From: Patescibacteria group bacterium
Lineage (GTDB): Bacteria; Patescibacteriota; Patescibacteriia; UBA1558; GWA2-36-10
Reading direction: 5' to 3'
Assembly (NCBI GenBank): GCA_041665505.1
Contig: JBAYIR010000004.1
Span: 6,797 to 70,796, forward strand
Length of the DNA stretch: 64,000 bases
A program made the position numbers and the translations under genes. The notes below the pieces were generated by a model. The model had not been told where the DNA came from. It ran no database searches and saw nothing but the letters and a program-made list of their open reading frames with translations. Positions 17,851-40,010 of the stretch are shown one piece after another; the stretch's first letter is position 1; each line of letters opens with the position of its first letter.

Positions 17851-17866
17851 AATTATTTATAATAAT

Positions 17867-18133
17867 ATGTCAGTTACAAAACATTTAGGCACTATCACTA
17901 TTTTGATGAAAGATAGACATAGCTACGCGCTAGAAGTACAGGAAGTGCTGACAGCCAACGGCCATTTGATTATGGCTAGAATGGGCATTAATCCGGCTCG
18001 TACTTGCCTTAAAAATTGTACAGGAGTTATTACCTTAATAGTAGAAGGTACAGTCAAGGAAATAAATGATTTGACCAAAAAACTAGACAAAATCTATGGG
18101 GCAGTAGCCAAAAAAATTATTATTACTGATTAA
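17867..18133 (+). CDS. small ACT/NikR-C-like putative regulator (resembles the TM1266 'iron-only hydrogenase system regulator' family)
   Basis: 88-aa pattern ITILMKDR....VQEVLTANGHLIMARMGI...ITLIVEGT..EINDLTKKL recalled from the TM1266/TIGR03959 family; recognition from memory only. Confidence 0.3.
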   Translation: MSVTKHLGTITILMKDRHSYALEVQEVLTANGHLIMARMGINPARTCLKNCTGVITLIVEGTVKEINDLTKKLDKIYGAVAKKIIITD

Positions 18134-18585: not shown

Positions 18586-18588
18586 GAT

Positions 18589-20028
18589 ATGTCCAAAAAA
18601 GAAAAATTTTATATTACTACTCCAATATATTATGTTAATGATAAACCGCATATTGGCCACGCCTATACTACAATAGTAGCTGATGTTTTGGCTCGTTTTT
18701 ATCGTGAGGAGATTGGTAAAGAAAATGTTTTCTTTTTGACCGGCACTGATGAACACGGAGCAAAAGTAGCTCAGGCCGCCGCTAAAGAGGGTTTAGATCC
18801 TCAGGCTTTTACCGATCAAGTATCGCAAAAATTTAAAGATACTTGGGAAAATTTGGATATTAGTTATGACCATTTTATTCGTACTACTGACAAAGGACAC
18901 AAAGACATAGTTATTGAGATATTAAAAAAATTAAAAGAGGCTGACGTTCTTTATCAGGGAGATTATCAAGGATTGTATTGTGTGGGTTGTGAAAAATTTA
19001 TTTTAGAAAGTGAGTTAGTTGACAATAAATGTCCAGATCACAACAAGATACCAGAAAAATTGATTGAAAAAAATTGGTTTTTTTCACTCCAGCAATTTTT
19101 ACCAAAAATAAAAAAAGCGATTGAAACTGGTGAATTATCCATTTATCCAGAGTCAAGGAAAAAGGAGGTCTTAGGACTGATTGATAAACAGGAATTGCCA
19201 GATTTTTCTATTTCTCGTAGTAAAAAATCAGTGCCATGGGGTATAGATTTGCCTTTTGATGCCAATCAAAAAACTTATGTCTGGGTTGATGCTCTTAGTA
19301 ACTATATTAGTGCTCTGGCTTATCCCCAGGGGAAAGATTTTAAAAAGTTTTGGCCAGCTGATGCTCAATTTTTAGCTTTGGATATTTTAAAATTTCATGC
19401 AGTTTATTGGCCAGCAATACTTATGGCTTTGGATTTACCTTTGCCAAAATTATATATTCATGGATTTTTCACTATTGATGGTAAAAAGATGAGTAAAACT
19501 TTGGGTAATGTTATTGACCCAAATAAACTAGTAGAGGACTACGGTTCAGAAATTTCCAAATATCTAATATTATCTCAATTTTCTTTTGGATCGGAGGCAG
19601 ATATAAAAATAGAAGATTTTCCAGTGAAATACAATGCTGACTTGGTGAATGGTTTAGGTAATCTGATTAACCGTGTGACCAACATGGTAGAAAAGTATTT
19701 AGATGGAAAAATAAAAGTAGATTTTAAATATACTCAGCTTGGTCAGGAAGAAATAAGACAGCTACATTTTAGAGAGGCGCTACTGACTATTTGGCAGGTA
19801 ATAGCCAAAGACAATTCTTTAATTGATCAGACTAAGCCTTGGGAGCTAGCTAAAGATGAAAAAAATCTGGGGCAGATAGAAAAAATACTTCAGGAATTGA
19901 TTTTGGATCTTTATAATATCGCTTTAGCCCTTAAACCATTTATGCCAAAGAAGTCTAAAGAGATTTTGGATATAGTTACAGCTGATAAGATAAAGAAACC
20001 AGAAAAGCCACTGTTTCCTAGATTATAA
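18589..20028 (+). CDS. metG: methionyl-tRNA synthetase (short form)
   Basis: ITTPIYYVNDKPHIGHAYTT (HIGH) and KMSKTLGNVIDP (KMSKS). Confidence 0.85.
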   Translation: MSKKEKFYITTPIYYVNDKPHIGHAYTTIVADVLARFYREEIGKENVFFLTGTDEHGAKVAQAAAKEGLDPQAFTDQVSQKFKDTWENLDISYDHFIRTTDKGHKDIVIEILKKLKEADVLYQGDYQGLYCVGCEKFILESELVDNKCPDHNKIPEKLIEKNWFFSLQQFLPKIKKAIETGELSIYPESRKKEVLGLIDKQELPDFSISRSKKSVPWGIDLPFDANQKTYVWVDALSNYISALAYPQGKDFKKFWPADAQFLALDILKFHAVYWPAILMALDLPLPKLYIHGFFTIDGKKMSKTLGNVIDPNKLVEDYGSEISKYLILSQFSFGSEADIKIEDFPVKYNADLVNGLGNLINRVTNMVEKYLDGKIKVDFKYTQLGQEEIRQLHFREALLTIWQVIAKDNSLIDQTKPWELAKDEKNLGQIEKILQELILDLYNIALALKPFMPKKSKEILDIVTADKIKKPEKPLFPRL

Positions 20029-20160
20029 TCATCTATAGTGGAGAAAAAACAGCCAATAGTGTATTATAGTAAAAACAATCATTAGTTATTATATATATTT
20101 TAAAATTAAATTTAAGTTTTATATTTTGAATAAAACTTATTTAAAGAGTGAAAAATAAAT

Positions 20161-20679
20161 ATGAATCTTTTTGACATTTTTTTGATCGTAGTGCTATTTA
20201 TCTTTACTTGGAAGGGTTTTAGAGCTGGTTTAGTAGGCGCTATTGGGGGATTGTTTGGAGTATTTTTTGGTATTTGGGCCGGCTCACACTATATGCAACA
20301 AGTCGGTGCTTGGCTGATGAGGGTGATAGATATTGATAATGAATATCTAGCTTTCATTATAGGATTTTTAGCTATTTTTTTGGCGGTCAATATTGCTGTC
20401 GGCATTATTGTTTCAGTTATTAATCGGGTTTTTCACATTATTCCTTTTATTGATATTTTGAATAAACTATTAGGAGCACTAGTTGGTATCATCACAGGGG
20501 CACTAGCAGTATCTTCTATAGTTTATATTATGTCACTTTTACCCATTAGTGATACTATAGCTAACAATATTTTGAATTCCCGACTAGCTGATATAGCTTT
20601 AAATATTGCTTTTATAGTCAAACCGTTTATACCAGCGGCAGTTAAAGAATTAAAATCAATTTTTGAAAATGTTAGTTGA
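20161..20679 (+). CDS. cvpA: CvpA-family membrane protein
   Basis: MNLFDIFLIVVLFIFTWKGFRAGLV N-terminus and 4-TM organisation typical of CvpA. Confidence 0.55.
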   Translation: MNLFDIFLIVVLFIFTWKGFRAGLVGAIGGLFGVFFGIWAGSHYMQQVGAWLMRVIDIDNEYLAFIIGFLAIFLAVNIAVGIIVSVINRVFHIIPFIDILNKLLGALVGIITGALAVSSIVYIMSLLPISDTIANNILNSRLADIALNIAFIVKPFIPAAVKELKSIFENVS

Positions 20680-24061: not shown

Positions 24062-24355
24062 GACAACCTCCATCAGTTATCGCACTGATTGGGCGTGACA
24101 GGGTTGAACTGTCAGGGGGTGGATGCTGCTCGTAGCAAATTCAATGAGCAGCACATTAGTTTCCATTAGTTGAAAAATACTGTGCTACCCATTGATATTT
24201 AATGTGAAAGAGCTAGATTAATATAGAATTATAGCATATTTTGTTTATTTTGTCAATGTTTAGTAGTATATAGTAGCTAGTATAATATTAAAAAAGTATT
24301 GACTTTTTCAAGTTTAGCGGTTATAATGTAGCCGCTTTTTGTTTATTATAAATTT

Positions 24356-24700
24356 ATGCCAGTAGTCAAAAATGACAATAAAAACAAGGCTAATAATGAG
24401 TGGCTAAGACAAGGAATGATGATGTTTGCCGAAAGTACCGGCTGGATCGCTTTCCCAGTCATAGGAGCTCTGTTTTTAGGTCAATGGCTAGATGAAAGAC
24501 AAGGCACAGGGCAGTTATATTTTTTAAGTATTACAGCTCTAGCTTTTATACTTTCTTCTGTGGGTATAGGCATGACAGGCGTAAAGTATATGAATAGAAT
24601 TGAAAAAGATGAAGCTGGGAAGAAAAATAATAAATCAAATAGCTTAGACAAAACCACACAGGAGAAAAAACAAGAAAATGAGCCAAGAAACGATAAATAG
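24356..24700 (+). CDS. AtpZ/AtpI-like small membrane protein preceding the ATP synthase operon
   Basis: Position immediately upstream of atpB; two TM helices and a Lys-rich tail, as in ATP-synthase protein I families. Confidence 0.4.
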   Translation: MPVVKNDNKNKANNEWLRQGMMMFAESTGWIAFPVIGALFLGQWLDERQGTGQLYFLSITALAFILSSVGIGMTGVKYMNRIEKDEAGKKNNKSNSLDKTTQEKKQENEPRNDK

Positions 24701-25580
24701 CAATCAAAACAATATAGAAGATACTTCGCGCATAGTTGAAGAAATTTTGGGTGAAGACTTAAATCAGGAAGCTGGCGCTCATACAGCTGAAGGAGCTGAG
24801 CATGAGGAGCACGAGCATACTTTATTTGCCGAAACAGTTTTTCAGGTTGGTGATTTTCCAATCACCAATTCACTGCTGACATCTTGGGTAGCAGTTTTTT
24901 TAATTATTATTTTGTCATTGGTCATTCGAGCTAAAAATAGTCGCATCCCATCAGTTTTCCAAAGTTTTATGGAAATAATTATTGATGGCGCACTGGGTAT
25001 GATGGATTTAGTGACCAATGATAGAGCTAAAAGTAAAAAAGTATTTCCAGTTATATTTTCAATTTTTCTTTTTGTGCTTATCAACAACTGGTTGGGGTTG
25101 TTACCGGGTTTAGGCTCCATTACTTATAATGGAGTAGCCTTACTAAGAGGGGGTACAGCTGATTTAAATACCACATTAGCTTTAGGGTTGTTTTCCGTAG
25201 TATCGGCCAATATTTTTGGTATGCTGGTAGTCGGTGGTTGGAATTATTTTAATAAATTTGTAAACATAAAAGCATTAATAGAAATACCTGGTAAAATTAG
25301 GCACGAACCAACCATTGTTTTGGTTAATCCTATAACTTTTTTTGTAGGATTAATTGAGATAGTGTCAGAAGTGGCCAAAGTAGCTTCACTATCATTTAGG
25401 TTGTTTGGTAATATTTTTGCTGGGGAAGTATTGATTGCTTCTATTTCAGCTTTAGTGGCTTATGGTGTGCCGCTACCATTTATGTTTTTAGAAGTAATTG
25501 TCGGAATTATTCAGGCCTTGATATTTTCCATTCTGACTTTGGTTTATTATACTATTGCTTCAGTTGAGCATGAACATTAA
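24678..25580 (+). CDS. atpB: F-type ATP synthase Fo subunit a
   Basis: Signature RLFGNIFAGEVL and polytopic membrane profile. Confidence 0.85.
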   Translation: MSQETINSNQNNIEDTSRIVEEILGEDLNQEAGAHTAEGAEHEEHEHTLFAETVFQVGDFPITNSLLTSWVAVFLIIILSLVIRAKNSRIPSVFQSFMEIIIDGALGMMDLVTNDRAKSKKVFPVIFSIFLFVLINNWLGLLPGLGSITYNGVALLRGGTADLNTTLALGLFSVVSANIFGMLVVGGWNYFNKFVNIKALIEIPGKIRHEPTIVLVNPITFFVGLIEIVSEVAKVASLSFRLFGNIFAGEVLIASISALVAYGVPLPFMFLEVIVGIIQALIFSILTLVYYTIASVEHEH

Positions 25581-26027
<447 letters not shown>

Positions 26028-26111
26028 TCGATTGTTTTGAGTGCTCTCTATATATGAGGGCACGACTAAGCAATTAATCTCTCGACATAGTTCGAGATAG
26101 AAGAAAATAAT

Positions 26112-26606
26112 ATGGAAATTTTAGAATTATTTGGAGTCGATTGGAAACTAATGACAGCTCAGCTAGTCAACTTTATTATAGTTATCTTGGTACTTTGGTT
26201 TTTTGCTTTAAAACCATTGACTAAGACTATGCAAAAGAGAAATGATGAAATTTTCAAAGGCTTATCAGACGCCAAAGCCGCTGAAGAAAGATTGCAGCAA
26301 GTTGAAAAGGAAGTCAAAGAAAAACTCATTGAGACTAAAGGTCTAGCCTCTGGTATTTTGGAAGAAGCTAAAAAACAATCAGAAAAAAGTAAACAAGAAA
26401 ACTTGACCAAAACCAAAGAAGAAGTCGCTAAATTGATTGTCAAAGCTAAAGAACAAATTGCTAGCGAAAAAGATAATATGTTAGTGGAAATCAAAGGTGA
26501 AGTATCTAGTATGGTAGTAGTGGCTTTGGAAAAGATTTTATCAGGTGGGCTGACAAAAGATATAGACAAAAAGTATATTGATAAAGCCTTAAAAGATTTA
26601 AAATAA
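26112..26606 (+). CDS. atpF: F-type ATP synthase Fo subunit b
   Basis: N-terminal TM then long charged helix; operon position. Confidence 0.7.
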   Translation: MEILELFGVDWKLMTAQLVNFIIVILVLWFFALKPLTKTMQKRNDEIFKGLSDAKAAEERLQQVEKEVKEKLIETKGLASGILEEAKKQSEKSKQENLTKTKEEVAKLIVKAKEQIASEKDNMLVEIKGEVSSMVVVALEKILSGGLTKDIDKKYIDKALKDLK

Positions 26607-27007
26607 TGAAAAAAGACCAAGCAAAAATTTTGGCTGCCGCTTTGTATAAAGCTAGTGGTGATAAAAAAGGCAAAGAATTAGATAAAGTGATTGCCAATTT
26701 TTCGGCTTACCTCAGTCAGCACCGTTTGGTGCCTATGATTCCTAATATATTAGGGCAGTTGGAAAATATTCATTTTTTAAAAGAAGGTATCATAGCTACC
26801 AAGATAACTAGTCGTGAAGAACTAGCTCAGGCGGAAATAAAAAAGATTTCTGATTTGATAAAAGCTAAAACCAAAAAAGAAGTAGTAGTTAAAACAGAAA
26901 TAGATAAAGAACTTATTGGTGGGGTAGTAGTAAAATATAATGACAAAATTATAGATATGTCCATCAAGCATCAATTAAACAATTTAGCAAAACAATTAAG
27001 CAATTAA
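26606..27007 (+). CDS. atpH: F-type ATP synthase subunit delta (short)
   Basis: Operon position between b and alpha; OSCP-like C-terminal [20 protein letters not shown]. Confidence 0.6.
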
Positions 27008-27011
27008 TAAT

Positions 27012-28544
27012 ATGTCTTACGATCATTTAGTAAAAAGTTTGCAAAAACAACTGGAAAATTGGCAATCAGATGTCAAAGAAGAAACAGCTGGTGAAGTTAT
27101 TGAAGTAGGTGACGGTATCGCCAAAGTATCTGGTCTATCAGATGTCATGGCTTCTGAGATGCTTGAATTTGAGACCAAAGCCGGAGATAAAATCTATGGT
27201 GTGGTTTTGAACTTAGAAGAATTTGCCGTTGGGGCTATTATTTTGGGTGAATATGGAGCCTTAAAAGAGGGCGACAAAGTAAAAAGAACCAAGCGTATTT
27301 TGGAAGTACCAGTTGGAGAAGCTGTGATTGGCCGAGTAGTAAATGCTTTAGGTCAACCAGTTGATGGTAAAGGTAATATAAAATCCAATGAGTTCTATCC
27401 AGTAGAAAAAATTGCTCCTGGAGTTATTACTCGTCAGTCAGTCTTTCAGCCACTAGAAACTGGTATCAAAGTAATTGATGCTATTATCCCTATTGGTAAA
27501 GGCCAACGTGAGCTTATTATTGGTGATCGTCAAACTGGTAAAACGGCTTTAGCTATTGATGCTATTATCAATCAAAAAGGCAAAGATGTTATTTGTATTT
27601 ATGTGGCTATTGGTCAAAAAGAATCAAAAGTAGCTAGAATCGTAGCTAAATTAGAAGAGACTGGAGCAATGGATTACACCACAGTAGTTTTAGCTGGTGC
27701 TTCTGAATCAGCTGCTCTTTCCTATATTGCTCCTTATGCTGGATGTTCTATGGGAGAATACTTTATGGACAAAGGCAAAGATGTTTTAGTGATATATGAT
27801 GATTTATCAAAACACGCTGTAGCTTATCGTCAGATTTCATTGCTACTTAAAAGACCACCAGGACGTGAAGCCTATCCCGGTGACGTTTTCTATGTGCATT
27901 CTAGATTATTGGAGCGAGCTGCTAAGATGAGTGATGAACTAGGTGGTGGATCACTAACAGCCCTTCCTATTATTGAAACTCAAGCTGGTGATATTTCAGC
28001 CTATATTCCTACCAATGTGATTTCTATTACTGATGGTCAGATTTTCTTGGAAACAGATTTGTTTTACAAAGGTATCAGACCAGCTCTATCTACTGGTTTA
28101 TCAGTTTCTCGTGTCGGTAGTGCCGCTCAGAAAAAAGCTATGAAAAAAGTAGCTGGTAAATTGAAAATGGATTTGGCTCAATATAGAGAGTTAGAGGCCT
28201 TTGCTCAATTTGGTAGTGATTTGGATGAAGCCACCAAGCAACAGCTTGATCGTGGGGCTAGAGTGACCGAGATTTTGAAGCAAGGTCAATTTAAACCACT
28301 TTTACAAAGCAAACAGATATCTATAATTTATGCTGCTGCCAATGGTCATCTAGATAAAGTGCCTGTAGCCAATTTAGCTGCTTTTGAACAAAAATTATTT
28401 AGTAAAATGGAAGCGGAAGGCAAAGACGTTTTAGATAATATTGAAAAAACTGGTTTACTATCCGAAGCGGATGAACAAAAATTAAAAAATATAATTAATG
28501 ATTTGGTAGAGTTAGAAGAAAAAGTCGGAGAAGACAAAAAATAA
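27012..28544 (+). CDS. atpA: F-type ATP synthase subunit alpha
   Basis: Walker [14 protein letters not shown]; 510 aa. Confidence 0.9.
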
Positions 28545-28577
28545 TTAATTTATTTGTCATCTGACAGAAATAAATAT

Positions 28578-29492
28578 ATGCCCCAGGCAAGTAGAGATAT
28601 ACAAAGAAGAATAAAATCGGTCAAGAATACCAAAAAAATTACCAAGGCTATGGAATTGGTCTCAGCCGCTAAAATGCGTAAAGCTGTATCGAAAGTATTA
28701 GCTTCTCGTTCTTATTCTGATTTGGTTTGGGATACAGTGCTTCATTTGGTCAAAAAAGTTGATACCAATAAACATTTATTTTTTAAAGAACCAAAAGAAG
28801 TCAAAAAAGTAGCCGTAGTGATAGTGAGCACCAATCGAGGTCTGTGTGGTAGTTTTAATACCCAATTAGTAAATAAAGTAATAGAATCTATTAAACTCCA
28901 TCATCCCGAAGTAGTCCAGACCGATATTATTACCTGTGGTACTAAAGGTAGAGATGAAGTCAGACGACATAAAGTAAATCTAGTAGCTGATTTTCATAAA
29001 GAAGATATTACAGCTAGTTCAGAAGATATACGGCCAATTGCTCATATGATTACCAAAGATTTTATAAGTGCTAAATATGATAAAATTTTTATAGCTTATA
29101 CTGATTTTATGTCTTCTTTAAAGCAAGTACCTCATGTCAAACAATTATTGCCTATAGTAGCTGAGATAGATGCTAGATTAGGACACATTAGTCATGATAA
29201 AGATAAAGTAGCCAAAATAAATGTAGACAGTTTTGCAGAATTTATTTTTGAACCAGGTATGAAAAGTATTTTAGATGCTTTTTTGCCAAGACTTTTGGAA
29301 GTACAAATTTATCAATCAGTCTTGGAATCAGAAGCATCAGAGCACAGTGCTCGCATGTTTGCTATGAGAAATGCTACTGACGCTGCTGGTGAGATGATCA
29401 GCGAATTAACCTTGGCCTATAATCAAGCTCGTCAGGCCAATATTACTGCTGAGATTGCTGAAATTGCTGCTGGTAGTGCCGCTTTAGAATAA
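28578..29492 (+). CDS. atpG: F-type ATP synthase subunit gamma (start at MPQASRDIQRRIKSV)
   Basis: N-terminus RDIQRRIKSVKNTKKITKAMELVSAAKMRKA. Confidence 0.85.
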   Translation: MPQASRDIQRRIKSVKNTKKITKAMELVSAAKMRKAVSKVLASRSYSDLVWDTVLHLVKKVDTNKHLFFKEPKEVKKVAVVIVSTNRGLCGSFNTQLVNKVIESIKLHHPEVVQTDIITCGTKGRDEVRRHKVNLVADFHKEDITASSEDIRPIAHMITKDFISAKYDKIFIAYTDFMSSLKQVPHVKQLLPIVAEIDARLGHISHDKDKVAKINVDSFAEFIFEPGMKSILDAFLPRLLEVQIYQSVLESEASEHSARMFAMRNATDAAGEMISELTLAYNQARQANITAEIAEIAAGSAALE

Positions 29493-29558
29493 ATTTAATA
29501 ATAAAATAATAATATTTACCCCGTTAGAAATTTACAATTGCGGGGACGTGAAGATTAA

Positions 29559-30938
<1,380 letters not shown>

Positions 30939-30960
30939 TCTTGTGTTCTAGGATAATATT

Positions 30961-31395
30961 ATGAAACAAATTAAGTTAAAAATAGTAACTCCAGAGAAGA
31001 TACTTTTTGAAGATATAGTATCTCAGATTTCTGTTTCTACAATTATGGGTGAGATTACTATTTTACCAAATCATATACCACTGGTGTCTCAGCTAGCCTC
31101 AGGAGAGATAGTTATTAAAACTGAGCAAGGTAAAGAAGATTTTATGGCTGTTTCTGGTGGTTTTATAGAAGTATTGCCAGATCAAGTAGTTATTTTGGCT
31201 GATACAGCTGAGCGGGCAGAGGATATTGATGAAGCTCGGGCCGAAGAAGCTCGTCAGAAGGCGGAAGAGATTTTGAAGACCAAAGTGGCTGACGCCGAAG
31301 GCTTTGCTATGTTTACCGCCAAAATAGAAAAAGAATTAGCTCGACTCAAAGTCGTTAGAAAACATAAAAATAAAAGAATAAATCCAGGTAATTAA
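30961..31395 (+). CDS. atpC: F-type ATP synthase subunit epsilon
   Basis: N-terminal beta-sandwich LKIVTPEKILFEDIVSQISVSTIMGEITILPNHIPLVS. Confidence 0.8.
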   Translation: MKQIKLKIVTPEKILFEDIVSQISVSTIMGEITILPNHIPLVSQLASGEIVIKTEQGKEDFMAVSGGFIEVLPDQVVILADTAERAEDIDEARAEEARQKAEEILKTKVADAEGFAMFTAKIEKELARLKVVRKHKNKRINPGN

Positions 31396-31420: not shown

Positions 31421-31870
31421 ATGAATTTTACAGTGCCTAATGATAAACTAGGAAAACATGAATGCCCACTAGCAGTTATCAAGTGTGTTGATTTTAGATT
31501 TCGTGAATCTGATCAAGAATTTGTAGTTAAAGGTTTGGGTTTTGAGGATTTTGATTTGTATGCTTGGCCAGGTAGTGCCAAAGATGTTTTGAAAAATAAT
31601 GGTTTCAAAGTATCTTTTATTGAAAAAATTGTAGCAATTTCCAAAAATCTACATAATGTAAAAAAACTTTTACTCTTATGGAATTGGGACAGCGATGTTT
31701 ATGGTAGTAGTAAGAATTTTTTAGATAGTAGTGTGGAAGAGCAAACTTATATCAAAGATTTGCAAACAGTCAGAGAGATGCTACTTAAAGAATTGCCAGA
31801 TGATCTAGAAATTATTATGGCTTATTCCAAATTAGTGCCTCAAGGTTTGGATTACATTGTAGTAGAATAA
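31421..31870 (+). CDS. hypothetical protein between atpC and the complex-I-like module
   Basis: 149-aa ORF, no TM, three Cys; no family recognised. Confidence 0.3.
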   Translation: MNFTVPNDKLGKHECPLAVIKCVDFRFRESDQEFVVKGLGFEDFDLYAWPGSAKDVLKNNGFKVSFIEKIVAISKNLHNVKKLLLLWNWDSDVYGSSKNFLDSSVEEQTYIKDLQTVREMLLKELPDDLEIIMAYSKLVPQGLDYIVVE

Positions 31871-31965
31871 AGTCTTTTAAATACGTTAAAAAGCCATGTT
31901 TTTGGTTGACTAAATGATGAATTTAGTATACTATATTGTTTTAAAAACTAGCGAGTAGTAATAAG

Positions 31966-32508
31966 ATGATTAAACTTTTTTTAAAAATAATCAAAACTTC
32001 CCAAAATACTATTAAGGTTGATGAGTTTGATAGTGATGGAATAAAATTTGAATCACTTGGTAAAAAGACGAGATCCAAAATCACACATTTATTTGGTGGA
32101 TCTTTGGCTATCAGACAAATAGATGCTGGTTCAGATAATTCAGCTGAACAAGAGCTAGTCGCTTTATCCAATACTTTTTATGATTTGGAGCGTTTTGGTA
32201 TTCATTTTGTAGCTTCCCCTAAACATGCTGATATGCTCTTTGTCACTGGTCCAGTGACACGCAATATGGCTGAAGCTCTTCGCCGAGCGTATGAGGCTAC
32301 ACCCGACCCAAAGATTGTAGTGGCTGTTGGTGATGATGCTATCAGTGGAGGTATATACAAAGGTTCTTATGCTATTGTGGGTGCGGTTAGTGATGTTTTG
32401 CCGGTGGATTTTTCTATCCCCGGAGATCCGCCATCACCTAAAGTCATTCTTGGTCACTTACTTCGTATTATGAAGGAATTAGAAAATCAGTCATTCAAAA
32501 AGAAATAA
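31966..32508 (+). CDS. NuoB / hydrogenase small-subunit (HycG/EchC)-like protein with all [4Fe-4S] cysteine ligands replaced; protein contains no Cys
   Basis: FGIHFVASPKHADMLFVTGPVTRNMAEALRRAYEATPDPKIVVAVGDDAISGG...IPGDPPSP aligns to NuoB ..SPRQADVMIVAGT..KMAP.LR..Y.QMPEPK.VI.MGSCANGGG...PGCPP with C->D/S/L. Confidence 0.7.
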   Translation: MIKLFLKIIKTSQNTIKVDEFDSDGIKFESLGKKTRSKITHLFGGSLAIRQIDAGSDNSAEQELVALSNTFYDLERFGIHFVASPKHADMLFVTGPVTRNMAEALRRAYEATPDPKIVVAVGDDAISGGIYKGSYAIVGAVSDVLPVDFSIPGDPPSPKVILGHLLRIMKELENQSFKKK

Positions 32509-32509: not shown

Positions 32510-34555
32510 ATGTTAGAACTAGCAGCATCTTCTATTGGTCTGGTCATTTTAATAGGGTTATTTACTGTTGGAGCAGTAGGCTCATTATTTTTGAGAACAG
32601 ATAAGCCAGCTAATGTTTGGAGTAGTTTTTTTGCTATTATCGGCTCTGTTTGGGGTATATTATTTGCCAGTCTGGTATTCTTTTTCAACCGGGAAATTAT
32701 TTTTTCCTTGACTTCAAGTATTTTTCCACTTTTGTCATTTTCATTTCATATTGATAAGTTAGCTAGTTTTTTTATTTTTACTATTTCACTCATTGCCTTA
32801 TTTTGCTCTATTTATGGGGCTGGTTATATCAAACATTTTTATAAAAAATATGACATTGGTGCTTTTGGATTTTTCTACCACCTGTTTATTTTAGGAATGA
32901 TTTCAGTAGTTATAGCGGCCAATGCTTTATTTTTTTTGCTAGCCTGGGAAATGATGTCTTTAGCCTCATATTTTTTGGTAGTTTATGATCGACATGATAC
33001 GCATAATGTAAAAGCTGGGTTTTTATATTTAGTTATGACTCATGTTGCTACAGCTTTTATTATTGTGGCCTTTTTACTACTGTATAAATTTACTGGGTCA
33101 TTTGATTTTGCTTTAATTCGCTCTAATGCCGAGTTGATTCCTCTCTGGTTAAAAAATACTGTTTTTGTGTTGACCTTAATTGGTTTCGGTACCAAAGCCG
33201 GTATTATACCATTTCATATCTGGTTACCTAGTGCTCATCCAGCTGCACCTTCGCATGTCAGCGCCCTTATGTCTGGTGTCATGATAAAAACTGGTATTTA
33301 CATGATGATTAGAATTTTTTTGGATTTATTACAGCCAGTGCCAGCTTGGTGGGGGCTTACTTTACTAGTAATTGGCTCAGTGTCATCTTTACTAGGTGTT
33401 CTTTACGCTTTGACTGAGCATGATATCAAGAAACTACTGGCTTATCATAGTATTGAAAACATTGGTATAATTTTATTGGGTTTAGGTAGTGCCTTAACTT
33501 TTTATTCTTTGGGGATGCCGTCTTTCGCTTTATTGGGGTTAGTAGCCGCGCTTTTTCACACTTTAAATCACGCTACTTTTAAATCACTATTGTTTTTGAG
33601 TGCTGGTTCAGTAATCAATCAAACGCACACGCGCAACATGGAAGATTATGGTGGTTTGATTAGGTACATGCCCCAGACAGCAGTTTTCTTTTTGATTGGC
33701 TCAATGGCAATTTCCGGCTTGCCTCCTTTCAATGGATTTTTTAGTGAGTGGCTCACTTTTCAGGCTTTGTTTCAAGGTATTATGCATTTTGCCATGATGG
33801 AGAAATCAATTTTTCTTTTGGCCGCAGGTGCCTTGGCTTTTACCGGTGGTTTAGCTTTAGCTTGCTTTGTTAAAGCTTTTGGTGTGATATTTTTGGCCAG
33901 ACCAAGAACTAAAGAAGCAGCTAACTCTCAAGAATCAGCTTGGTCTTTGCGTGTGGGTATGGCATCATTAGCTATATTGTGCTTATTATTTGGCTTATTT
34001 TCTGGCTCGCTAGTATCTTGGTTTACCAGAGTGGCTAATGGTCTAAGAATTTTTCAAGGTATTAATTCTTTTGTATCATCGCCAACTAATCAAATATTGG
34101 TTGCCGACAATAACTTTGCTTCCGTATCGGCCGCTGGTATTCTAGCTTTTTTACTTATCGTCTTGGTGTTAGTGCTTTTGGTATTCAAATATGTTATTCA
34201 TCGCCAACAAAAAATAAAAGTTGGTGCTACTTGGGATTGTGGAGTTGATTTGACTCCGCGAATGGAGATAACTGCTACTGGTTTTGCAAGATCAATTATT
34301 TTGATTTTTAAAGGAGTATTGAGACCTAGTATTCAGCGTGAGGTTGAATATCATGATTCGCAAACTCGCTATTTACCAAAAACTATTACAGTGGTGTCAG
34401 GTATCAATAATGTATATCAGCAATATTTTTATCAGCCTTTGTCCAAAAATGTTATTGCATTTGCACAGTCTGTCAGAAAAATTCAGAATGGTAATGTTAA
34501 TCTTTACATTTTATATATTTTTATTGCTTTAATTATTCTATTATTTTTTGTATAA
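32510..34555 (+). CDS. NuoL/MrpA/HyfB-like antiporter-type membrane subunit
   Basis: About 16 TM helices; motifs HIWLPSAHPAAPSHVSALMSGVMIKTGIY and LLAYHSIENIG typical of complex I antiporter-like subunits. Confidence 0.7.
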   Translation: MLELAASSIGLVILIGLFTVGAVGSLFLRTDKPANVWSSFFAIIGSVWGILFASLVFFFNREIIFSLTSSIFPLLSFSFHIDKLASFFIFTISLIALFCSIYGAGYIKHFYKKYDIGAFGFFYHLFILGMISVVIAANALFFLLAWEMMSLASYFLVVYDRHDTHNVKAGFLYLVMTHVATAFIIVAFLLLYKFTGSFDFALIRSNAELIPLWLKNTVFVLTLIGFGTKAGIIPFHIWLPSAHPAAPSHVSALMSGVMIKTGIYMMIRIFLDLLQPVPAWWGLTLLVIGSVSSLLGVLYALTEHDIKKLLAYHSIENIGIILLGLGSALTFYSLGMPSFALLGLVAALFHTLNHATFKSLLFLSAGSVINQTHTRNMEDYGGLIRYMPQTAVFFLIGSMAISGLPPFNGFFSEWLTFQALFQGIMHFAMMEKSIFLLAAGALAFTGGLALACFVKAFGVIFLARPRTKEAANSQESAWSLRVGMASLAILCLLFGLFSGSLVSWFTRVANGLRIFQGINSFVSSPTNQILVADNNFASVSAAGILAFLLIVLVLVLLVFKYVIHRQQKIKVGATWDCGVDLTPRMEITATGFARSIILIFKGVLRPSIQREVEYHDSQTRYLPKTITVVSGINNVYQQYFYQPLSKNVIAFAQSVRKIQNGNVNLYILYIFIALIILLFFV

Positions 34556-34557: not shown

Positions 34558-35490
34558 ATGATGATTTTTATTTGGATGTTACAAATTATTTTGGTGCCAG
34601 CTATTTCTCCGTTAGCCATTGGTCTAATTAATAAAATCAAGGCTCGATTACAAAATCGTCGAGGAGCAAGTATTTTCCAGCCTTATAAGGATATTTGGAA
34701 ATTATTGCACAAAGATGAAGTAGTAAGTCGTGATGCTTCTTGGATTTTTTATTATGCGCCTTATATAGTATTTACTATCACTTTGATTTTAGCAGGCAGC
34801 CTTCCTTTATTTGCCTCATTTTTGAATAATATTATGACTGGCGATTTATTGACGATTGTTTATTTGATTGCTTTTGGTACTTTCTTTTTGGCACTAGCAG
34901 GCTTAGATATTGGTGGAGCTTTTGGTGGTTTCGGTTCTAGTCGTGAAATGACCATATCAGCTTTGGCTGAGGGGGGATTGATTTTTTCTTTATTGGCTGT
35001 AGCTATAAATGTCGGCACTAGCAATCTTTTTGAGATGTCTACTCTTGGTTTTTCATTTTATGATCAACATCTTTTACCAACACTACTAGCCTTAGCTGGA
35101 TTTTTTGTGGTATTGCTCGCAGAAGCAGCTCGTTTTCCTTTTGATAATCCAGCTACTCATTTAGAGCTAACTATGGTTCACGAGGCTATGATTTTAGAAT
35201 ACTCTGGTAAAAGATTAGCTTTAATGGAGTGGTCGGCTGCTAATAAGCTGATTTGTTTTATTGCTATTGGTGCTAATATTTTTTTCCCTTGGGGTTTGGC
35301 TACTAGTGTAGGAGTCAGTGTTTTGATATTAAGTTTAATAATATTTATTTTAAAAATATTTATTTTTTGTGCAGTCATAGCTTTGATTGAATCCAGTATG
35401 GCGAAATTTAGATTTTTTCGTCTGCCAGATTTACTCTTTATTTCTTTTATTCTTAGCGTGATGGCCATCAGCCTCACCCAAATATTATGA
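34558..35490 (+). CDS. NuoH/HycD-like membrane subunit
   Basis: RRGASIFQPYKDIWKLLHKDEV matches the HycD/NuoH N-terminal pattern; 8 TM. Confidence 0.65.
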   Translation: MMIFIWMLQIILVPAISPLAIGLINKIKARLQNRRGASIFQPYKDIWKLLHKDEVVSRDASWIFYYAPYIVFTITLILAGSLPLFASFLNNIMTGDLLTIVYLIAFGTFFLALAGLDIGGAFGGFGSSREMTISALAEGGLIFSLLAVAINVGTSNLFEMSTLGFSFYDQHLLPTLLALAGFFVVLLAEAARFPFDNPATHLELTMVHEAMILEYSGKRLALMEWSAANKLICFIAIGANIFFPWGLATSVGVSVLILSLIIFILKIFIFCAVIALIESSMAKFRFFRLPDLLFISFILSVMAISLTQIL

Positions 35491-36134
35491 GTTTATTTAT
35501 TTCACAATTTTTATTAGCAATTATTTTTCTCACGATTGTTTTTTTGCATGGTGCCAAAAAAAATATGGGAGCAGTGCTTGCTTATAGATTGCAGTCATTA
35601 GCGGTAGTAGCTTTTACATTTAGCTCTTTTTTGGAGACTAGAGATATACTTTTACTTATTGTCTGTTTAGTTATCTTTATAGTAAAAGTTATTTTTGCGC
35701 CAATGTTTTTAGCACGTTTGATTAAAAAACATAAACTTACTTATTCGGTCAGTTCTTACCTCAATGCACCTCTGACTTTGATCATGATCGCCATTTTTAC
35801 TGCTATTGCTTATTCACAAAAATTTGTGCCTTTAACCAATCTCATGCCTGGCCATCAGACATTATTACATCTAGCTCTAGCTTCAATTTTTCTTTCTCTC
35901 TTTTTGATAGTCAATCGCAAAGGTGTGCTCTCTCAGATTATTGGTGTGTTGTCGCTAGAAAACAGTATAGTGACTTTTGTTTTTTATGCTGGTTTGGAGC
36001 AATCACATAGTTTGCAGCTAGGTATTTTATTTGATATTTTTATTTGGATTATTATTGCTATTGTATTTATGTCTATGATTTATCGCCACTATGATTCTTT
36101 GGATGTCAGTCGAATGAAGCAATTAAAAGATTAA
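35487..36134 (+). CDS. HyfE/NuoK-like small membrane subunit
   Basis: 215-aa polytopic protein with IGVLSLENSIVTF motif, located between the NuoH-like and NuoN-like genes as hyfE is in hyf operons. Confidence 0.4.
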   Translation: MSLFISQFLLAIIFLTIVFLHGAKKNMGAVLAYRLQSLAVVAFTFSSFLETRDILLLIVCLVIFIVKVIFAPMFLARLIKKHKLTYSVSSYLNAPLTLIMIAIFTAIAYSQKFVPLTNLMPGHQTLLHLALASIFLSLFLIVNRKGVLSQIIGVLSLENSIVTFVFYAGLEQSHSLQLGILFDIFIWIIIAIVFMSMIYRHYDSLDVSRMKQLKD

Positions 36135-36139: not shown

Positions 36140-37582
36140 ATGGAATTACTATTTATTTTTTTACCATTATTAATTGCGGTTTTAGTGGGCTTGCTATCCA
36201 GACAAAGACTACTTATTGAAATTACTTCTGGTGTCGCTATAGGTCTTGCTTTTATTGCAACTATTTTAATAGCTCAAAATGTAGCTGCTTTTGACAGTTA
36301 TAGTCCTTGGCCTATTTTTTCTGTTGATGCACTAGGGGCTATAGTAATGCTTATTATTGCTTGTGTTGGTTTGATGGCTAGTATTTATTCTATTCCGTAT
36401 TTGCGCCAGGAAAGTGCTAAAGGTATCATTGGCTTTACTAGAGTTAGACAATATTTTAATTTATTGAATTTGTTTTTGGCCGTTATGTTTTTTGCCGTGA
36501 CCGCTAGCAATCCAGTAATGACTTGGATTGCCATAGAGCTAACTACTTTATCAACGGCTTTTCTGATTAGTTTTTACAATAAAGCTTCATCTATTGAAGG
36601 AGCTTGGAAATATTTAATTATTAATTCAGTTGGCTTGTTATTGGCATTTTTTGGGACCTTGTTATATTTGACTTCATTAGGAATAAATAGTGATAGTACT
36701 TTTGCTACTTGGAGCGCTTTACTGACTAATGCTCACAATCTAGATCCTCTGATTGCCAAACTAGCTTTTATTTTTGTTTTTATCGGCTATGGTGTTAAAG
36801 TTGGTCTTGCCCCAATGCATACTTGGCTACCTGATGCACATAGTAAATCACCAGCACCAATTAGTGCGCTTCTTTCGGGGGTACTTTTAAATGTTGCTTT
36901 TTTTACGGTGTTAAAATTTAAAATTATCACAGATGTGTCTGTCGGAGGGACGTTCTCAAGTACTATATTGATTAGCTTTGGCTTGTTGTCTATATTTATA
37001 GCAGCCATGATTATTCTGGTCCAAAAAAGTTACAAGCGACTATTGGCTTATTCTAGTATTGAAAATATGGGGATTATGTCACTTGGTTTTGGCTTTGGTG
37101 GCTTTGGTGGTTTTGGCGCTATTCTTCATATGCTATATCATTCGTTTATAAAATCAGCTCTATTTTTACTATCGGGTAATTTTTTACTCAAGTATAGCTC
37201 TGCTAAAATTAAAAACGTGCGTGGTGCTTTATTAGTTATGCCTCTGGCTAGCGTCCTGTTTCTAGTGGGGATTTTTGCTATTGCTGGTGTTCCGCCTTTT
37301 GGTATTTTTTTAACTAAATTATTTATTATCAGTGCAGGCATGTCTACTTATCCTATTGTTAGTATTGTCGCTGTAATTTTATTTTCCGTGGCTTTTGTTG
37401 GTTTATTTAAGCATGCTGGAGCTATGATTTTTGGTGAGCCGTCAGCTGAGATGAAGAAAGAAAAAGAAAATATTTGGTTGATTTTACCATCATTGGTTTT
37501 ACTGTTAACAATTTTCTTTTTGAGTTTTCAGCTGCCAAATTTTTTGTCAGTATTAATTAATGAAGCAGTTAAAGGGTATTAA
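36140..37582 (+). CDS. NuoN/NuoM/MrpD-like antiporter-type membrane subunit
   Basis: HTWLPDAHSKSPAPISALLSGVLLNVAFF and LLAYSSIENMG motifs. Confidence 0.7.
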   Translation: MELLFIFLPLLIAVLVGLLSRQRLLIEITSGVAIGLAFIATILIAQNVAAFDSYSPWPIFSVDALGAIVMLIIACVGLMASIYSIPYLRQESAKGIIGFTRVRQYFNLLNLFLAVMFFAVTASNPVMTWIAIELTTLSTAFLISFYNKASSIEGAWKYLIINSVGLLLAFFGTLLYLTSLGINSDSTFATWSALLTNAHNLDPLIAKLAFIFVFIGYGVKVGLAPMHTWLPDAHSKSPAPISALLSGVLLNVAFFTVLKFKIITDVSVGGTFSSTILISFGLLSIFIAAMIILVQKSYKRLLAYSSIENMGIMSLGFGFGGFGGFGAILHMLYHSFIKSALFLLSGNFLLKYSSAKIKNVRGALLVMPLASVLFLVGIFAIAGVPPFGIFLTKLFIISAGMSTYPIVSIVAVILFSVAFVGLFKHAGAMIFGEPSAEMKKEKENIWLILPSLVLLLTIFFLSFQLPNFLSVLINEAVKGY

Positions 37583-37585: not shown

Positions 37586-39154
37586 ATGAATAAAGAAATA
37601 ATTAAACAATATTTACCAGACAATGTTGATGTGAATTTTTTTGCCAACGTCGCTGTCTTTGAAATAGCTACAGCCAATATTAAAGAAGTAGTAAATTTTT
37701 TGCGTAATGACAAAAATCTTTCATTGAAGTTGGTTACAGCTACCGATGAGCGCAAAGATAGTCATTGTTTTAAAATTTGGTATGTTTTTGGCCTACCTAA
37801 AGAAAATATATTTATTGTGCCTTTTATTAAATTAGAAGATACTTTGGAATTTCCTTCGGTCGCTTTGGCCTGCCAAGAAGCTTTGAATTATGAGCGTAAG
37901 ATCCAAACTTTTTTTGGTTTAGTACCAGTGGGACATACTGATCCTAGGTCTATTATTTTGCATGAAAATTGGCCAGCTAATATTTTCCCTTTGAGAAAAG
38001 ATTTTGACTGGCAATCCAGACCAGCTGTAGTCGAAGGGACTTATCAATTTAATCGGGTCAAGGGCGAGGGGATATATGAGATACCAGTCGGTCCTATTCA
38101 CGCTGGTATTATTGAGCCAGGGCATTTTCGTTTTAGCGTGGCTGGAGAAACTATAGTGTCATTAGAACCGCGTTTGGGTTTCACACACAAAGGTAGTGAA
38201 AAGTTGTTTGAACATTTTTCATTAGCCGATAGTGTGCGACTGGCTGAAAAAATTTCTGGTGACAGCTCTCTTAGTCACTCTTTGGCTTTTTGTCAGACCA
38301 TAGAGAGTTTAGCTGATTTGAAATTGCCAAAGCGGGCTGCTTATTTGCGGGTCATTTTTGCTGAGCTAGAGCGTCTAGCCAATCACTTTGGCGATATTGG
38401 GGCTATTATGCTGGACACGGGATTTAATTTTGGTGGTGCGCAAGGATCAAGATTGCGTGAGATGATTATGCAAATTAACGAGCGTTTGACTGGTAGTAGA
38501 TTTTTGCGTTCAGTCAATACTATTGGTGGAGTGCAAAAAGATTTAACAGAGGCTGAAATAAGCCAGCTAGCCAAAAGCTTAGAGATAATAGCCAAAGATT
38601 TTTCTGAAGTCATAGAAATTGCTGAAAATAGTTCATCATTAGTCAATCGTCTTCAAGACACTGGTAAGCTTACTCAGGCTTTTGCTAAAAGTCATGGCGT
38701 AGTTGGTGTGGCGGCTAGAGCTACTGGTATCGGATGTGATACGCGGGCTGATTTTCCTTATGCCGCTTATCAAGAATTATTTTTAGATAGAATTGAAACA
38801 GAAAACACTGGTGATGTTTGCGCACGATTTTATGTCCGCATCAAAGAAGTCAGAGCGTCCATAGCTATAATTGATGGTGCTTTGAAAGCTATACCTAAGG
38901 GACTCATCAAAACTAGTGATACTATTGTTCTCAAAAAAAATGCTTGTGCTATAGCTCTGGTAGAGGGTTGGCGAGGAGAGATTTTGTATTTTATCACCAC
39001 CGACGCGCAAGGGCAGATTAGTAGAGTTGTACCTCGTGATCCTTCTTTTCTGAATTGGAATGTCTTGGGTAAAGTTGGTGTAAATAATATAGTACCAGAT
39101 TTTCCTTTGATTAATAAAAGTTTTAATTTGTCCTATACGGGTAATGATTTGTAG
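37586..39154 (+). CDS. NuoC-NuoD fusion / HycE-like large subunit lacking both NiFe-binding CxxC motifs
   Basis: NuoC-like ALNYERKIQTFFGLVPVGHTDPRSIIL; NuoD-like VGPIHAGIIEPGHFRF...GFTHKGSEKLFE; N-terminal RxCGxC position reads RLAEKISGD; C-terminal DPCxxCxxH position reads DPSFLNWNV. Confidence 0.7.
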   Translation: MNKEIIKQYLPDNVDVNFFANVAVFEIATANIKEVVNFLRNDKNLSLKLVTATDERKDSHCFKIWYVFGLPKENIFIVPFIKLEDTLEFPSVALACQEALNYERKIQTFFGLVPVGHTDPRSIILHENWPANIFPLRKDFDWQSRPAVVEGTYQFNRVKGEGIYEIPVGPIHAGIIEPGHFRFSVAGETIVSLEPRLGFTHKGSEKLFEHFSLADSVRLAEKISGDSSLSHSLAFCQTIESLADLKLPKRAAYLRVIFAELERLANHFGDIGAIMLDTGFNFGGAQGSRLREMIMQINERLTGSRFLRSVNTIGGVQKDLTEAEISQLAKSLEIIAKDFSEVIEIAENSSSLVNRLQDTGKLTQAFAKSHGVVGVAARATGIGCDTRADFPYAAYQELFLDRIETENTGDVCARFYVRIKEVRASIAIIDGALKAIPKGLIKTSDTIVLKKNACAIALVEGWRGEILYFITTDAQGQISRVVPRDPSFLNWNVLGKVGVNNIVPDFPLINKSFNLSYTGNDL

Positions 39155-39205
39155 ATGTTAGTATAAGAGGTCATGTTAGACATAGTAAAAATTTTATATT
39201 TTTAT

Positions 39206-39233
39206 AAAAACCCCCTATTTTAGGGGGTTTTTA
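39206..39233 (+). terminator. strong rho-independent terminator ending the atp/complex-I-like transcription unit
   Basis: aaaaaccccctattttagggggttttt; 7-bp G/C stem flanked by A/T runs (bidirectional in appearance). Confidence 0.7.
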
Positions 39234-39379: not shown

Positions 39380-39925
39380 ATGACAGGACTGTCTTCTACA
39401 GGAGGTTGGCTCTTGAATAAGTGTTACGATGCCACTGGCGCCCCGTGCATGGATGGAGATTATTTTCCGCTTTTTCATGCGAAAGTAATCTCCATGTGTG
39501 GTCGGCTTGTTGACTTACTCCCTCAACCTGGGGGTGCCAAAACCCTCAGAACAGCCAATCTCTCGGCTCATGAGTTTGCCGGCAGATTCGTCAGCGTTTC
39601 TGTCGCCAAGCATGGTATCAGAACTATCGTCATTGGCACCCACCTTCAATGTGCCGCCTACGAGAAGTTTGGGCTTTCTTTGTCCGAAGAAGAAGCACTC
39701 CAGCGCCAGCATATTGAGAGAGCAGTTCGCTTTCTTAATGATTACGTCCCGATGGGGATCCAACACTACCTCAAGGAGGAAAAACTTCCCGAGCATGAAG
39801 TGCAGAACTTGGAGACCGTTTTGGAGAGCGGTATAATCATCCAAGCTCTGCTCATCAAGCCGTACGATATGTCGCGGCGCATCAAGGAACCTTCTGAAGA
39901 GTGTTTTGTGGAGCAAGTGCTCTGA
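39380..39925 (+). CDS. hypothetical protein encoded in GC-rich island B (alternative TTG start at 39413 preceded by AGGAGG with a 7-nt spacer)
   Basis: 170-181 aa ORF; GC content far above the backbone; canonical SD; followed by its own terminator; no family recognised. Confidence 0.4.
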   Translation: MTGLSSTGGWLLNKCYDATGAPCMDGDYFPLFHAKVISMCGRLVDLLPQPGGAKTLRTANLSAHEFAGRFVSVSVAKHGIRTIVIGTHLQCAAYEKFGLSLSEEEALQRQHIERAVRFLNDYVPMGIQHYLKEEKLPEHEVQNLETVLESGIIIQALLIKPYDMSRRIKEPSEECFVEQVL

Positions 39926-40010
39926 CCTACAATGTCCTTTTCATTTTTGTTGCCACCGCCCTTATCACTGGTGGCCCAGTTCTATACTTCTGCCCAAGCG
40001 CGGGCAGGGG

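Follow-up and report, generated by a model that had tools for sequence, protein, structure and literature searches.

Background

Complex I, membrane-bound hydrogenase (MBH) and formate hydrogenlyase (FHL) are understood to power ion translocation by redox reactions at the contact between NuoB and NuoD. The related Ehr complexes (energy-converting or Ech-hydrogenase-related complexes) reportedly go back to Coppi in 2005 and Marreiros et al. in 2013. By definition, Ehr large subunits lack NiFe ligands (PMC6349859, PMC4378227, PMC12342949), and the literature still treats the function of the complexes as unknown (PMC10284858, PMC10432482, PMC12342949). Jaffe et al. 2020 described a monophyletic Ehr clade of the Candidate Phyla Radiation (CPR), whose large subunits have no metal-binding cysteines and whose proteins are probably unable to interact with H2 (PMC7304191). 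The present analysis concerns an Ehr operon in a stretch of 64,000 nucleotides of contig JBAYIR010000004.1 from a Patescibacteria group bacterium (the whole stretch is referred to as the window), and in particular its first gene, EhrS, which encodes a homologue of the small subunits NuoB, HycG and MbhJ. An earlier interpretation made from the letters of the window, referred to as the sequence-only reading, had proposed that this protein lacks the cysteines that bind the iron-sulphur (Fe-S) cluster of its family.

The operon resembles described Ehr operons, including those of the CPR-specific clade, in its six-gene set, its fused large subunit without NiFe ligands, and the absence of a NuoI/HycF gene. 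The Ehr complexes of Acidobacteriota, Methylococcales and Nitrosotalea keep the four cluster cysteines (CCCC type) and the gene order L-H-E-M-CD-S, whereas in the clade of the window the small-subunit gene stands first and the ligands have been lost (Cys-poor type); Ehr operons of the latter type are linked to the ATP synthase (atp) operon and those of the CCCC type are not. The solved chains that match the Ehr subunits best are those of FHL/hydrogenase-3 and hydrogenase-4 (HycG/HyfI; 7z0s) and of MBH (6cfw), and the subunit set is of the Hyf type, as in hydrogenase-4. In contrast to the group 4 [NiFe] hydrogenases, the Ehr of the window lacks NiFe ligands, proximal-cluster ligands and a HycF/MbhN subunit, and it therefore cannot be a hydrogenase; the MrpEFG-like sodium module of MBH is absent as well.

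EhrS shares its Pfam family and fold with NuoB, Nqo6 and PSST of complex I and is accompanied by NuoD-, NuoC-, NuoH- and NuoL/M-like partners, whereas the N2 ligands, NuoEFG, NuoI, equivalents of NuoA, NuoJ and NuoN, and any sign of quinone use are missing. CPR organisms generally lack quinones. The best functional analogy is with the Mrp antiporters, whose MrpA/MrpD-like subunits contain the same chain of Glu, Lys and His residues and likewise work without redox cofactors; Mrp, however, has no NuoB/NuoD/NuoH-like module, and its extra MrpB/C/E/F/G subunits were not found in the Ehr operon. The DabAB/MpsAB and cyanobacterial NDH-1MS/CupA systems link NuoL-like proton modules to the hydration of CO2, which is not a redox reaction, but the window contains no DabA or CupA homologue, and its carbonic-anhydrase-like open reading frames (ORFs) are not conserved neighbours of Ehr operons.

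Family membership and ligand positions of EhrS

The protein and the sites that carry the main finding are located as follows.

31966 to 32508, + strand: EhrS, small subunit of the NuoB/HycG/MbhJ family, 180 aa, no cysteine (ORF translation, Pfam and PDB alignments)
32134 to 32145, + strand: codons of D57-N58-S59-A60, in place of the hydrogenase C-x-x-C motif with ligands 1 and 2 (MbhJ and HycG alignments)
32332 to 32337, + strand: codons of D123-D124, with D124 in place of ligand 3 (G-x-C changed to G-D-D; alignments)
32425 to 32427, + strand: codon of D154, in place of ligand 4 (PGCPP changed to PGDPP; alignments)

Translation of the coding sequence confirmed the length and the complete absence of cysteine that had been claimed, and the antisense strand of the same interval is crowded with stops. 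EhrS matched PF01058 (Oxidored_q6) with 87.4 bits (cut-off 27, E=8e-25). Its best PDB match was P. furiosus MbhJ (6cfw_J; E=4e-28, 135 residues without a gap), followed by E. coli HycG (7z0s_G; E=3e-26) and then by mitochondrial PSST, plastid NdhK and Thermus Nqo6, with values of about 1e-24 to 1e-22 for PSST and Nqo6; a total of 45 distinct PDB sequences matched at E<=0.01. Both the profile and solved members thus cover the core domain, placing EhrS in the NuoB/Oxidored_q6 fold family as had been proposed and excluding the possibility that it is no member of the NuoB family. The scores against the NCBIfam NuoB models were below their cut-offs (113.4 bits versus 116 for NF005012 and 102.4 bits versus 142.7 for TIGR01957), and the NuoB subfamily match spans residues 63-178 only, with the first ligand motif outside it.

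Structure prediction, which the sequence-only reading had recommended, was performed with AlphaFold2 for the monomer using a 40-sequence alignment of close relatives. The model was poor, with a predicted local distance difference test (pLDDT) value of 54, and it was least reliable at residues 56-72 and 122-155, which form the loops that wrap the cluster. In Foldseek the top 50 matches of this low-confidence model were all NuoB/HycG/MbhJ chains; the fold family was retrieved in this way.

Alignment to MbhJ and HycG identified D57, A60, D124 and D154 as the residues at the four [4Fe-4S] ligand positions. The first ligand motif reads GSDNSA at residues 55-60 (G55-S-D-N-S-A60-E-Q-E), and gapless extrapolation of the Nqo6 alignment places the Cys-Cys pair of complex I at S59 and A60. 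D123 provides a further carboxylate beside the ligand positions. None of the cysteine ligands of the family (CxxC or CC, GxC, GCPP) is present; with none of the four left, Fe-S binding through the canonical ligands is impossible, as had been concluded earlier. Two of the motif changes on which that conclusion had rested, GSCANGG to GDDAISGG and GCPP to GDPP, agree with the alignments, which put the missing cysteines at D124 and D154, respectively. The third, GLACC to FGGSLA, had been placed about 10 residues away from the site that the gapless MbhJ and HycG alignments identify as GSDNSA. Asp occupies three of the four ligand positions (D57, D124 and D154) instead of the two reported.

The absence of cysteine was itself considered as a signal and rejected: the 17 neighbouring proteins have a cysteine content of 0.58%, at which the chance of finding none in 180 aa is about 0.35, and AtpB (300 aa) likewise has none. 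As judged from the alignments, the signal beyond chance is that four ligands which are invariant elsewhere have been lost amid conserved motifs. The ligand positions are encoded by GAT, GCT, GAT and GAT, any of which would need two substitutions to become TGY, and the neighbouring conserved residues are in frame. A protein identical to EhrS (P0001, labelled 'Patescibacteria group bacterium') is recorded in NCBI, JGI, ENA and Logan. The distance of the codons from Cys codons and the identical database protein together exclude a frame or sequencing error whose correction would restore the cysteines. The probability that EhrS is a cofactor-free Ehr small subunit was estimated at about 0.9.

Composition of the Ehr operon

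EhrS is followed on the same strand by five genes.

32510 to 34555, + strand: HyfB/NuoL-like antiporter-like subunit, 681 aa (PF00361, E=6e-60)
34558 to 35490, + strand: NuoH/HycD-like membrane subunit, 310 aa (PF00146, E=1e-40; HycD 7z0s_D, E=9e-44)
35487 to 36134, + strand: HyfE-like membrane subunit, 215 aa, with a NuoK-like C-terminal part (PF00420, E=9e-6)
36140 to 37582, + strand: HyfF/NuoM/MbhH-like antiporter-like subunit, 480 aa (PF00361, E=4e-50; MbhH 6cfw_H, E=4e-36)
37586 to 39154, + strand: fused NuoC-NuoD/HycE-like large subunit (EhrCD), 522 aa (PF00346, PF00329; HycE 7z0s_E, E=1e-68)

The 681-aa subunit scored 675 bits against the NCBIfam model 'hydrogenase 4 subunit B', above its cut-off of 667, and the 215-aa subunit matched 'hydrogenase 4 membrane subunit' with E=6e-17, under the cut-off. 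A large subunit without NiFe ligands is thus clustered with NuoL/M-, NuoH-, HyfE- and NuoB-like genes, the combination that characterizes Ehr; of the full MrpA-G set that defines Mrp, only MrpA/D-like subunits are encoded in the operon.

All NiFe-ligand cysteines of the large subunit have been replaced, by S224, S227, S516 and G519. The CGIC motif of HycE aligns to SGDS and its C-y-s-C motif to S-y-t-G, and in place of the group 4 [NiFe] hydrogenase motifs RxCGxCxxxH and DPCxxCxxH/R the protein reads KISGDSSLSH and NLSYTGNDL. For a comparative survey, 80 related loci were drawn from GTDB species genomes. The pattern S[S/T/N]SG was found in the large subunits of nearly all of them, with Ala at the first position in two. 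In all Ehr large subunits examined, Cys-poor and CCCC alike, an invariant Gly-Asp stands between the former NiFe cysteines (C-G-I-C changed to S-G-D-S/T); in the window the codons of S224-G225-D226-S227 lie at 38246-38257, and S516 and Y517 are conserved near the C terminus. This pattern of conservation marks the former NiFe site as a conserved polar site and not as a degenerate one.

No HycF/MbhN/NuoI-type gene is present among the six genes of the operon, and no ORF with two CxxCxxCxxxCP motifs was found inside any of the 80 related operons. Since Ehr of the CCCC type has neither a ferredoxin subunit nor NiFe ligands, the small-subunit cluster is its only predicted redox cofactor, and the Cys-poor clade has, by the evidence of its ligand motifs, lost even this last one. 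The sequence-only reading had located the loss of cysteines in a single subunit; with a large subunit that also lacks NiFe ligands and no ferredoxin subunit, the whole complex is predicted to be cofactor-free, and its genes encode no canonical ligands for any Fe-S or NiFe centre.

The gene order S-L-H-E-M-CD, with EhrS first, is the same in every Cys-poor locus. Most CCCC relatives have the order L-H-E-M-CD-S, and the small-subunit gene already stands first in a few CCCC loci (L062, L063, L065).

Homologues and conservation

The 120 closest homologues of EhrS share 64-77% identity with it, and every named one is from Patescibacteria, which fits the monophyletic CPR Ehr clade known from large-subunit trees; this level of identity extends across CPR lineages named as different candidate phyla. 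Asp is found at position 57 in all 120, at position 123 in 118 and at position 124 in 119, whereas position 154 is Asp in 92 and Asn in 28, and position 60 is Cys in 108 and Ala in 10. Written as the residues at positions 57, 60, 124 and 154, D-C-D-D is therefore the usual pattern and the D-A-D-D of EhrS a minority form. The homologue survey that had been suggested earlier thus found the Asp substitutions at 57 and 124 to be near-universal among the closest 120, but no fixed ligand set among wider relatives, and most relatives keep one cysteine, at position 60, which the sequence-only reading had overlooked.

The Cys-poor patterns in the 80 related loci comprise DCDD, DADD, TCDD, TADD, DCDN, DCGD, SEGD, DVDD and DAAD. 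C-C-C-C is kept by the relatives that come next in similarity, which are from Acidobacteriota/Terriglobia, Methylococcales and Nitrosotalea together with two CPR-labelled contigs. Among the 150 nearest cluster representatives at 50% identity, 93 are C-C-C-C and about 25 are Cys-poor with varied patterns, the remainder being partial and mostly fragments. A neighbour-joining tree calculated without the ligand columns placed EhrS in a pure clade of 67 Cys-poor sequences, with 19 Cys-poor sequences elsewhere; the method is too crude to decide between a single and multiple losses of the cluster. Outside the ligand positions and a few conservative neighbours, Cys-poor and CCCC small subunits are nearly identical column by column, sharing among others R50, N58, E61, E63, D73, R76, H87 and D89, and the changes from CCCC to Cys-poor are C57 to D/T/S, G59 to A, C124 to D, C126 to I and C154 to D. 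The change therefore appears, from these columns, close to a surgical removal of the cluster ligands.

The Cys-poor type also occurs on contigs outside the CPR, namely L050 (Lentisphaerae), L049 (a 3-Mb Victivallales chromosome) and L026 (446 kb, labelled Negativicutes). Two Ehr operons stand in tandem in L050 (3471-17975); the small subunit encoded between them is Cys-poor (T-C-D-D), and the one at the end is a 252-aa CCCC protein that has a ferredoxin motif.

The membrane arm is conserved in its charged residues, the key ones at or close to 100%. In the 480-aa subunit E133, K220, H330, H334 and K338 are conserved across the clade, with variation at two key sites (position 234 is His or Tyr and position 393 Lys or Glu), and in the 681-aa subunit E147, K229, H243, H350, H354 and K358 are conserved, so that both contain the Glu/Lys/His chain of antiporter-like proton channels. 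These residues presumably correspond to the TM5 Glu, TM7 Lys, TM8 His/Lys, TM11 His/Lys and TM12 Lys/Glu of complex I. The NuoH-like subunit has E189, D196, E209, E214 and E278 in all sequences that are not gapped at the respective column. In EhrS, the loci differ in using GAT or GAC for Asp at positions 57, 123, 124 and 154, and the retention of Asp through this synonymous change indicates that the amino acid itself is under selection. Purifying selection on the canonical charged residues of the two antiporter-like subunits and the NuoH-like subunit, and on the remainder of EhrS, is evident from these alignments.

Linkage to the ATP synthase operon

The Ehr operon is directly preceded by the genes of the F-type ATP synthase, a tie that had been overlooked in the sequence-only reading. 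The features relevant to this arrangement are listed below.

24678 to 31395, + strand: F-type ATP synthase operon atpB-E-F-H-A-G-D-C, directly upstream of the Ehr region (ORFs matched to the atp genes of related loci)
31421 to 31870, + strand: 149-aa ORF between atpC and EhrS (PF20393 Pro_CA_2, borderline at 29.9 bits versus a cut-off of 30)
31906 to 31934, + strand: promoter-like site TTGACT-17-TACTAT just upstream of EhrS (consensus match only)
39205 to 39233, + strand: intrinsic-terminator-like hairpin with a 13-bp stem and a T tract, 51 nt past the stop of the large-subunit gene (hairpin scan)

Terminator-like hairpins at 24316-24336 and 39205-39233 bracket a 15-kb cluster of atp and Ehr genes. 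Weak terminator-type Rfam matches coincide with the latter hairpin, which is likely the end of the transcription unit. No strong terminator-like hairpin was found between the atp operon and EhrS, where a single weak hairpin of 5 pairs lies inside the 149-aa ORF, and the site at 31906-31934 is a possible internal promoter. The Ehr operon is co-located with the F1Fo ATP synthase operon and probably co-transcribed with it.

Of the 44 Cys-poor loci, 21 have atp genes at a distance of 10 kb or less from the Ehr operon, versus none of 17 CCCC loci (Fisher p=2e-4), a comparison that is confounded by taxonomy and genome size. The Ehr operon directly follows atpC in, for example, L003, L013, L018, L022, L025 and L032; it stands ahead of atpB in L040, and it is divergent or convergent to the atp genes in L001, L009 and L057. 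In L033 (9102-18600) it lies between atpG and atpD, with 5 nt from the atpG stop to the EhrS start and 24 nt from the EhrCD stop to the atpD start; the order is the same in L039 and probably in L038 (3-1018, a short contig). The small subunits of L033, L039 and L038 are D-A-D-D, as in EhrS of the window. The persistence of the association through these rearrangements argues for a functional tie. No other conserved accessory neighbour was found among the families searched or in the two neighbourhoods that were fully annotated.

The c subunit of the window (25815-26027) has the ion-binding motif A-F-A-E-A-I-A-I-Y, in which the Ser/Thr and Gln of Na+-type subunits are absent. The signature was assessed by hand alignment to the c subunit of I. 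tartaricus, and the F1Fo ATPase of the window is probably H+-coupled.

Proposed function and alternatives

With no predicted redox cofactor, the complex is unlikely to be driven by electron transfer. The Ehr complex would instead be a redox-independent translocator of H+ or another cation, resembling an Mrp-type antiporter or acting as a gated proton path, and it may share an ion circuit with the F1Fo ATPase of a cell that lives by fermentation, where it could, for instance, convert or regulate the gradient built by ATP hydrolysis. EhrS and EhrCD would together cap the NuoH-like channel on its cytoplasmic side, a conserved arrangement kept for gating or coupling, and the former cluster pocket with its three to four carboxylates may serve as a charged proton- or cation-binding element in lieu of the redox centre. 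This full model of a redox-independent, ion-translocating, complex-I-like module working with the ATPase is advanced tentatively, at slightly worse than even odds.

Several points weigh against it. With the low pLDDT of the EhrS model, the pocket geometry is deduced from homology, the identity and direction of the transported ion are an inference, and about half of the Cys-poor loci with sufficient flank show no nearby atp genes. The Hyf-type membrane arm lacks a sodium module of the MrpB/C/E/F/G kind, which leaves Na+/H+ antiport without specific support, and an antiporter role leaves the retention of a large conserved cytoplasmic module unexplained. In L082 (complete Moraniibacteriota genome CP065011.1), an Ehr-like operon lies away from the atp genes and is followed, at 17351-20179, by a small Fer4_13 ferredoxin gene and then a gene for a PF01794 ferric-reductase-like membrane protein, which could be a redox partner or a coincidence.

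The leading alternative, which is compatible with the ion-translocation model, is that the Asp-rich pocket has become a specific metal or cation site (e.g. Mg2+, Ca2+, Mn2+, Fe2+ or Na+) in place of the cluster, with the bound ion as a functional trigger or a structural keystone. The pocket was defined as positions 57, 60, 123, 124 and 154 and scored in 189 unique Cys-poor sequences, of which 180 have at least three acidic pocket residues (21 of 30 distinct patterns). An acidic residue at position 60 occurs mainly with a non-acidic residue, often Gly, at 124 (SEGD, NEGD, TEGD, CEGD), an association that Fisher's test puts at p=2e-9 when sequences are counted and at p=0.03 when distinct patterns are counted, in statistics that ignore phylogeny. 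Such pairing speaks for a cation site, as do the retention of Asp through GAT/GAC variation and the large subunits of the Cys-poor clade, in which no newly gained Lys or Arg that would compensate was found; the gapless MbhJ alignment suggests that the side chains converge on the former cubane cavity. No invariant set exists, however, with D/T/S/N at 57, C/A/E/V/I/D at 60, D/G/E/A at 124 and D/N/S/A at 154; patterns with just one or two carboxylates occur (TCDGN, SVDGN, DCTAA), D123 is present in many CCCC proteins too, and hydrophilic filling of a newly solvent-exposed cavity would look similar. A maintained carboxylate cluster acting as a proton- or cation-binding element is thus moderately supported by the residue patterns, and a specific ion site in the strict sense is doubtful. 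The earlier suggestion that the Asp residues may mark a metal or cation site accordingly stands as regards a carboxylate-rich pocket, but not as regards a fixed ligand set, and is plausible and unproven.

In a stronger form of the ion-circuit model, the cofactor-free Ehr of Patescibacteria and a few other anaerobes would be a dedicated partner of F1Fo, in a supercomplex or as an obligatory member of the ion circuit, with the pocket carboxylates as a proton- or cation-sensing trigger that drives or gates the antiporter-like subunits. This stronger form is unlikely; if true, nature would have produced the coupling machinery of complex I in a redox-free version, and a gap would be filled in how CPR cells without respiration build or use membrane potential.

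A less probable proposal, made by analogy, is that the EhrS/EhrCD module binds or converts a non-redox substrate in a reaction coupled to ion translocation, with CO2/bicarbonate as one candidate. The peripheral subunits are conserved as strongly as the membrane subunits, the Ehr large subunits contain an invariant polar set (S-G-D226-S/T, S516 and Y517) as well as E177 and H172 in a conserved N-terminal loop, and two Pro_CA_2 (putative carbonic anhydrase) ORFs flank the operon in the window. These ORFs, however, have no homologue in the other 80 loci, the downstream one lies beyond the strong terminator in a GC-rich island, the atp genes are the only conserved neighbours among the families searched, and the sequence names no candidate substrate.

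It is very unlikely that an Fe-S cluster or other redox centre is held by non-cysteine ligands (Asp/Glu and the residual C60) and served by an unidentified redox partner. Asp ligates a [4Fe-4S] cluster in a few proteins, e.g. Pyrococcus furiosus ferredoxin, C60 is kept in 90% of close relatives, and the ferredoxin gene after the operon in L082 would suit such a partner. Against this, EhrS has no cysteine at all and its relatives at most one of four, at a position that is often A, V, E or I, and the ligand positions are too variable for a cluster site. No operon contains a NiFe site, a NuoI/HycF relay or a NuoEFG-type input module, and we know of no [4Fe-4S] cluster with three carboxylate ligands.

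Finally, a sequencing or frame artefact or a decaying relic, as the loss of cofactor ligands in a reduced Patescibacteria genome might suggest, is already refuted as far as sequence data reach by the intact ORF in an operon of overlapping or abutting genes, the identical protein in four independent sources, the same substitutions in hundreds of homologues at 64-77% identity, the two substitutions that separate every replaced codon from Cys, the pocket residues kept despite synonymous variation, and the intact catalytic residues of the membrane arm.

Novelty and significance

The absence of NiFe ligands from CPR Ehr large subunits is known already (PMC7304191). In the literature that was covered, which excludes Marreiros 2013 and Coppi 2005 and which describes Ehr through its large subunit, no report was found of the loss of the small-subunit cluster, of a whole complex free of cofactors, or of the embedding in the atp operon; the founding Ehr papers might have priority for Cys-less small subunits. 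The Cys-poor Ehr, which is conserved and widespread, keeps the NuoB/NuoD/NuoH adaptor and the antiporter-like subunits without a place for a redox cofactor. Either the adaptor has a non-redox role, or the membrane arm works as a secondary transporter and the cap regulates it, and both options bear on the coupling mechanism of complex I, for which a simpler, metal-free complex could serve as a test case. How Patescibacteria use their ATP synthase is an open question, and in fermentative members the enzyme is believed to work in the reverse direction (PMC10633639); the tie between Ehr and atp genes bears on this use and on the handling of membrane potential without a respiratory chain. Proteins of the EhrS type now carry the database names 'NADH-quinone oxidoreductase subunit B', 'formate hydrogenlyase' or 'Ni,Fe-hydrogenase III small subunit', which wrongly imply respiration or hydrogen metabolism when the metabolism of these genomes is reconstructed.

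Other features of the window

The 149-aa ORF upstream of EhrS carries the sequence 'CVDFR', which resembles the CxDxR motif of beta-carbonic anhydrases. Just past the operon terminator lies an island of 600 bp (about 39400-40000) with about 50% GC in a 35% GC genome, which contains the second ORF of this kind.

39380 to 39925: ORF for a putative carbonic anhydrase (PF20393 'Pro_CA_2') downstream of the operon, in the GC-rich island

Only six database relatives of its product were found, a 158-aa version is annotated 'carbonic anhydrase' at NCBI, and the ORF may have been horizontally acquired. The two flanking ORFs were considered as a conserved component of the system and rejected, being peculiar to this genome, with no homologues in the 80 related loci and the downstream one past the terminator. 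A non-coding RNA in the island was rejected as well; the Rfam matches there are sub-threshold and implausible, and the region encodes the PF20393 protein with its homologues. Over the whole 64-kb window, no Rfam family reached its gathering score, and no tRNA, rRNA or ribosomal-protein leader was found; the window nonetheless contains the L11-L1 region at 53707-54934. No respiratory-chain genes were found elsewhere in the window, the remainder of which consists of housekeeping genes and includes aminoacyl-tRNA synthetases, RecO, TGT, ClpB, GyrB, NusG and two pilin-like N_methyl proteins.

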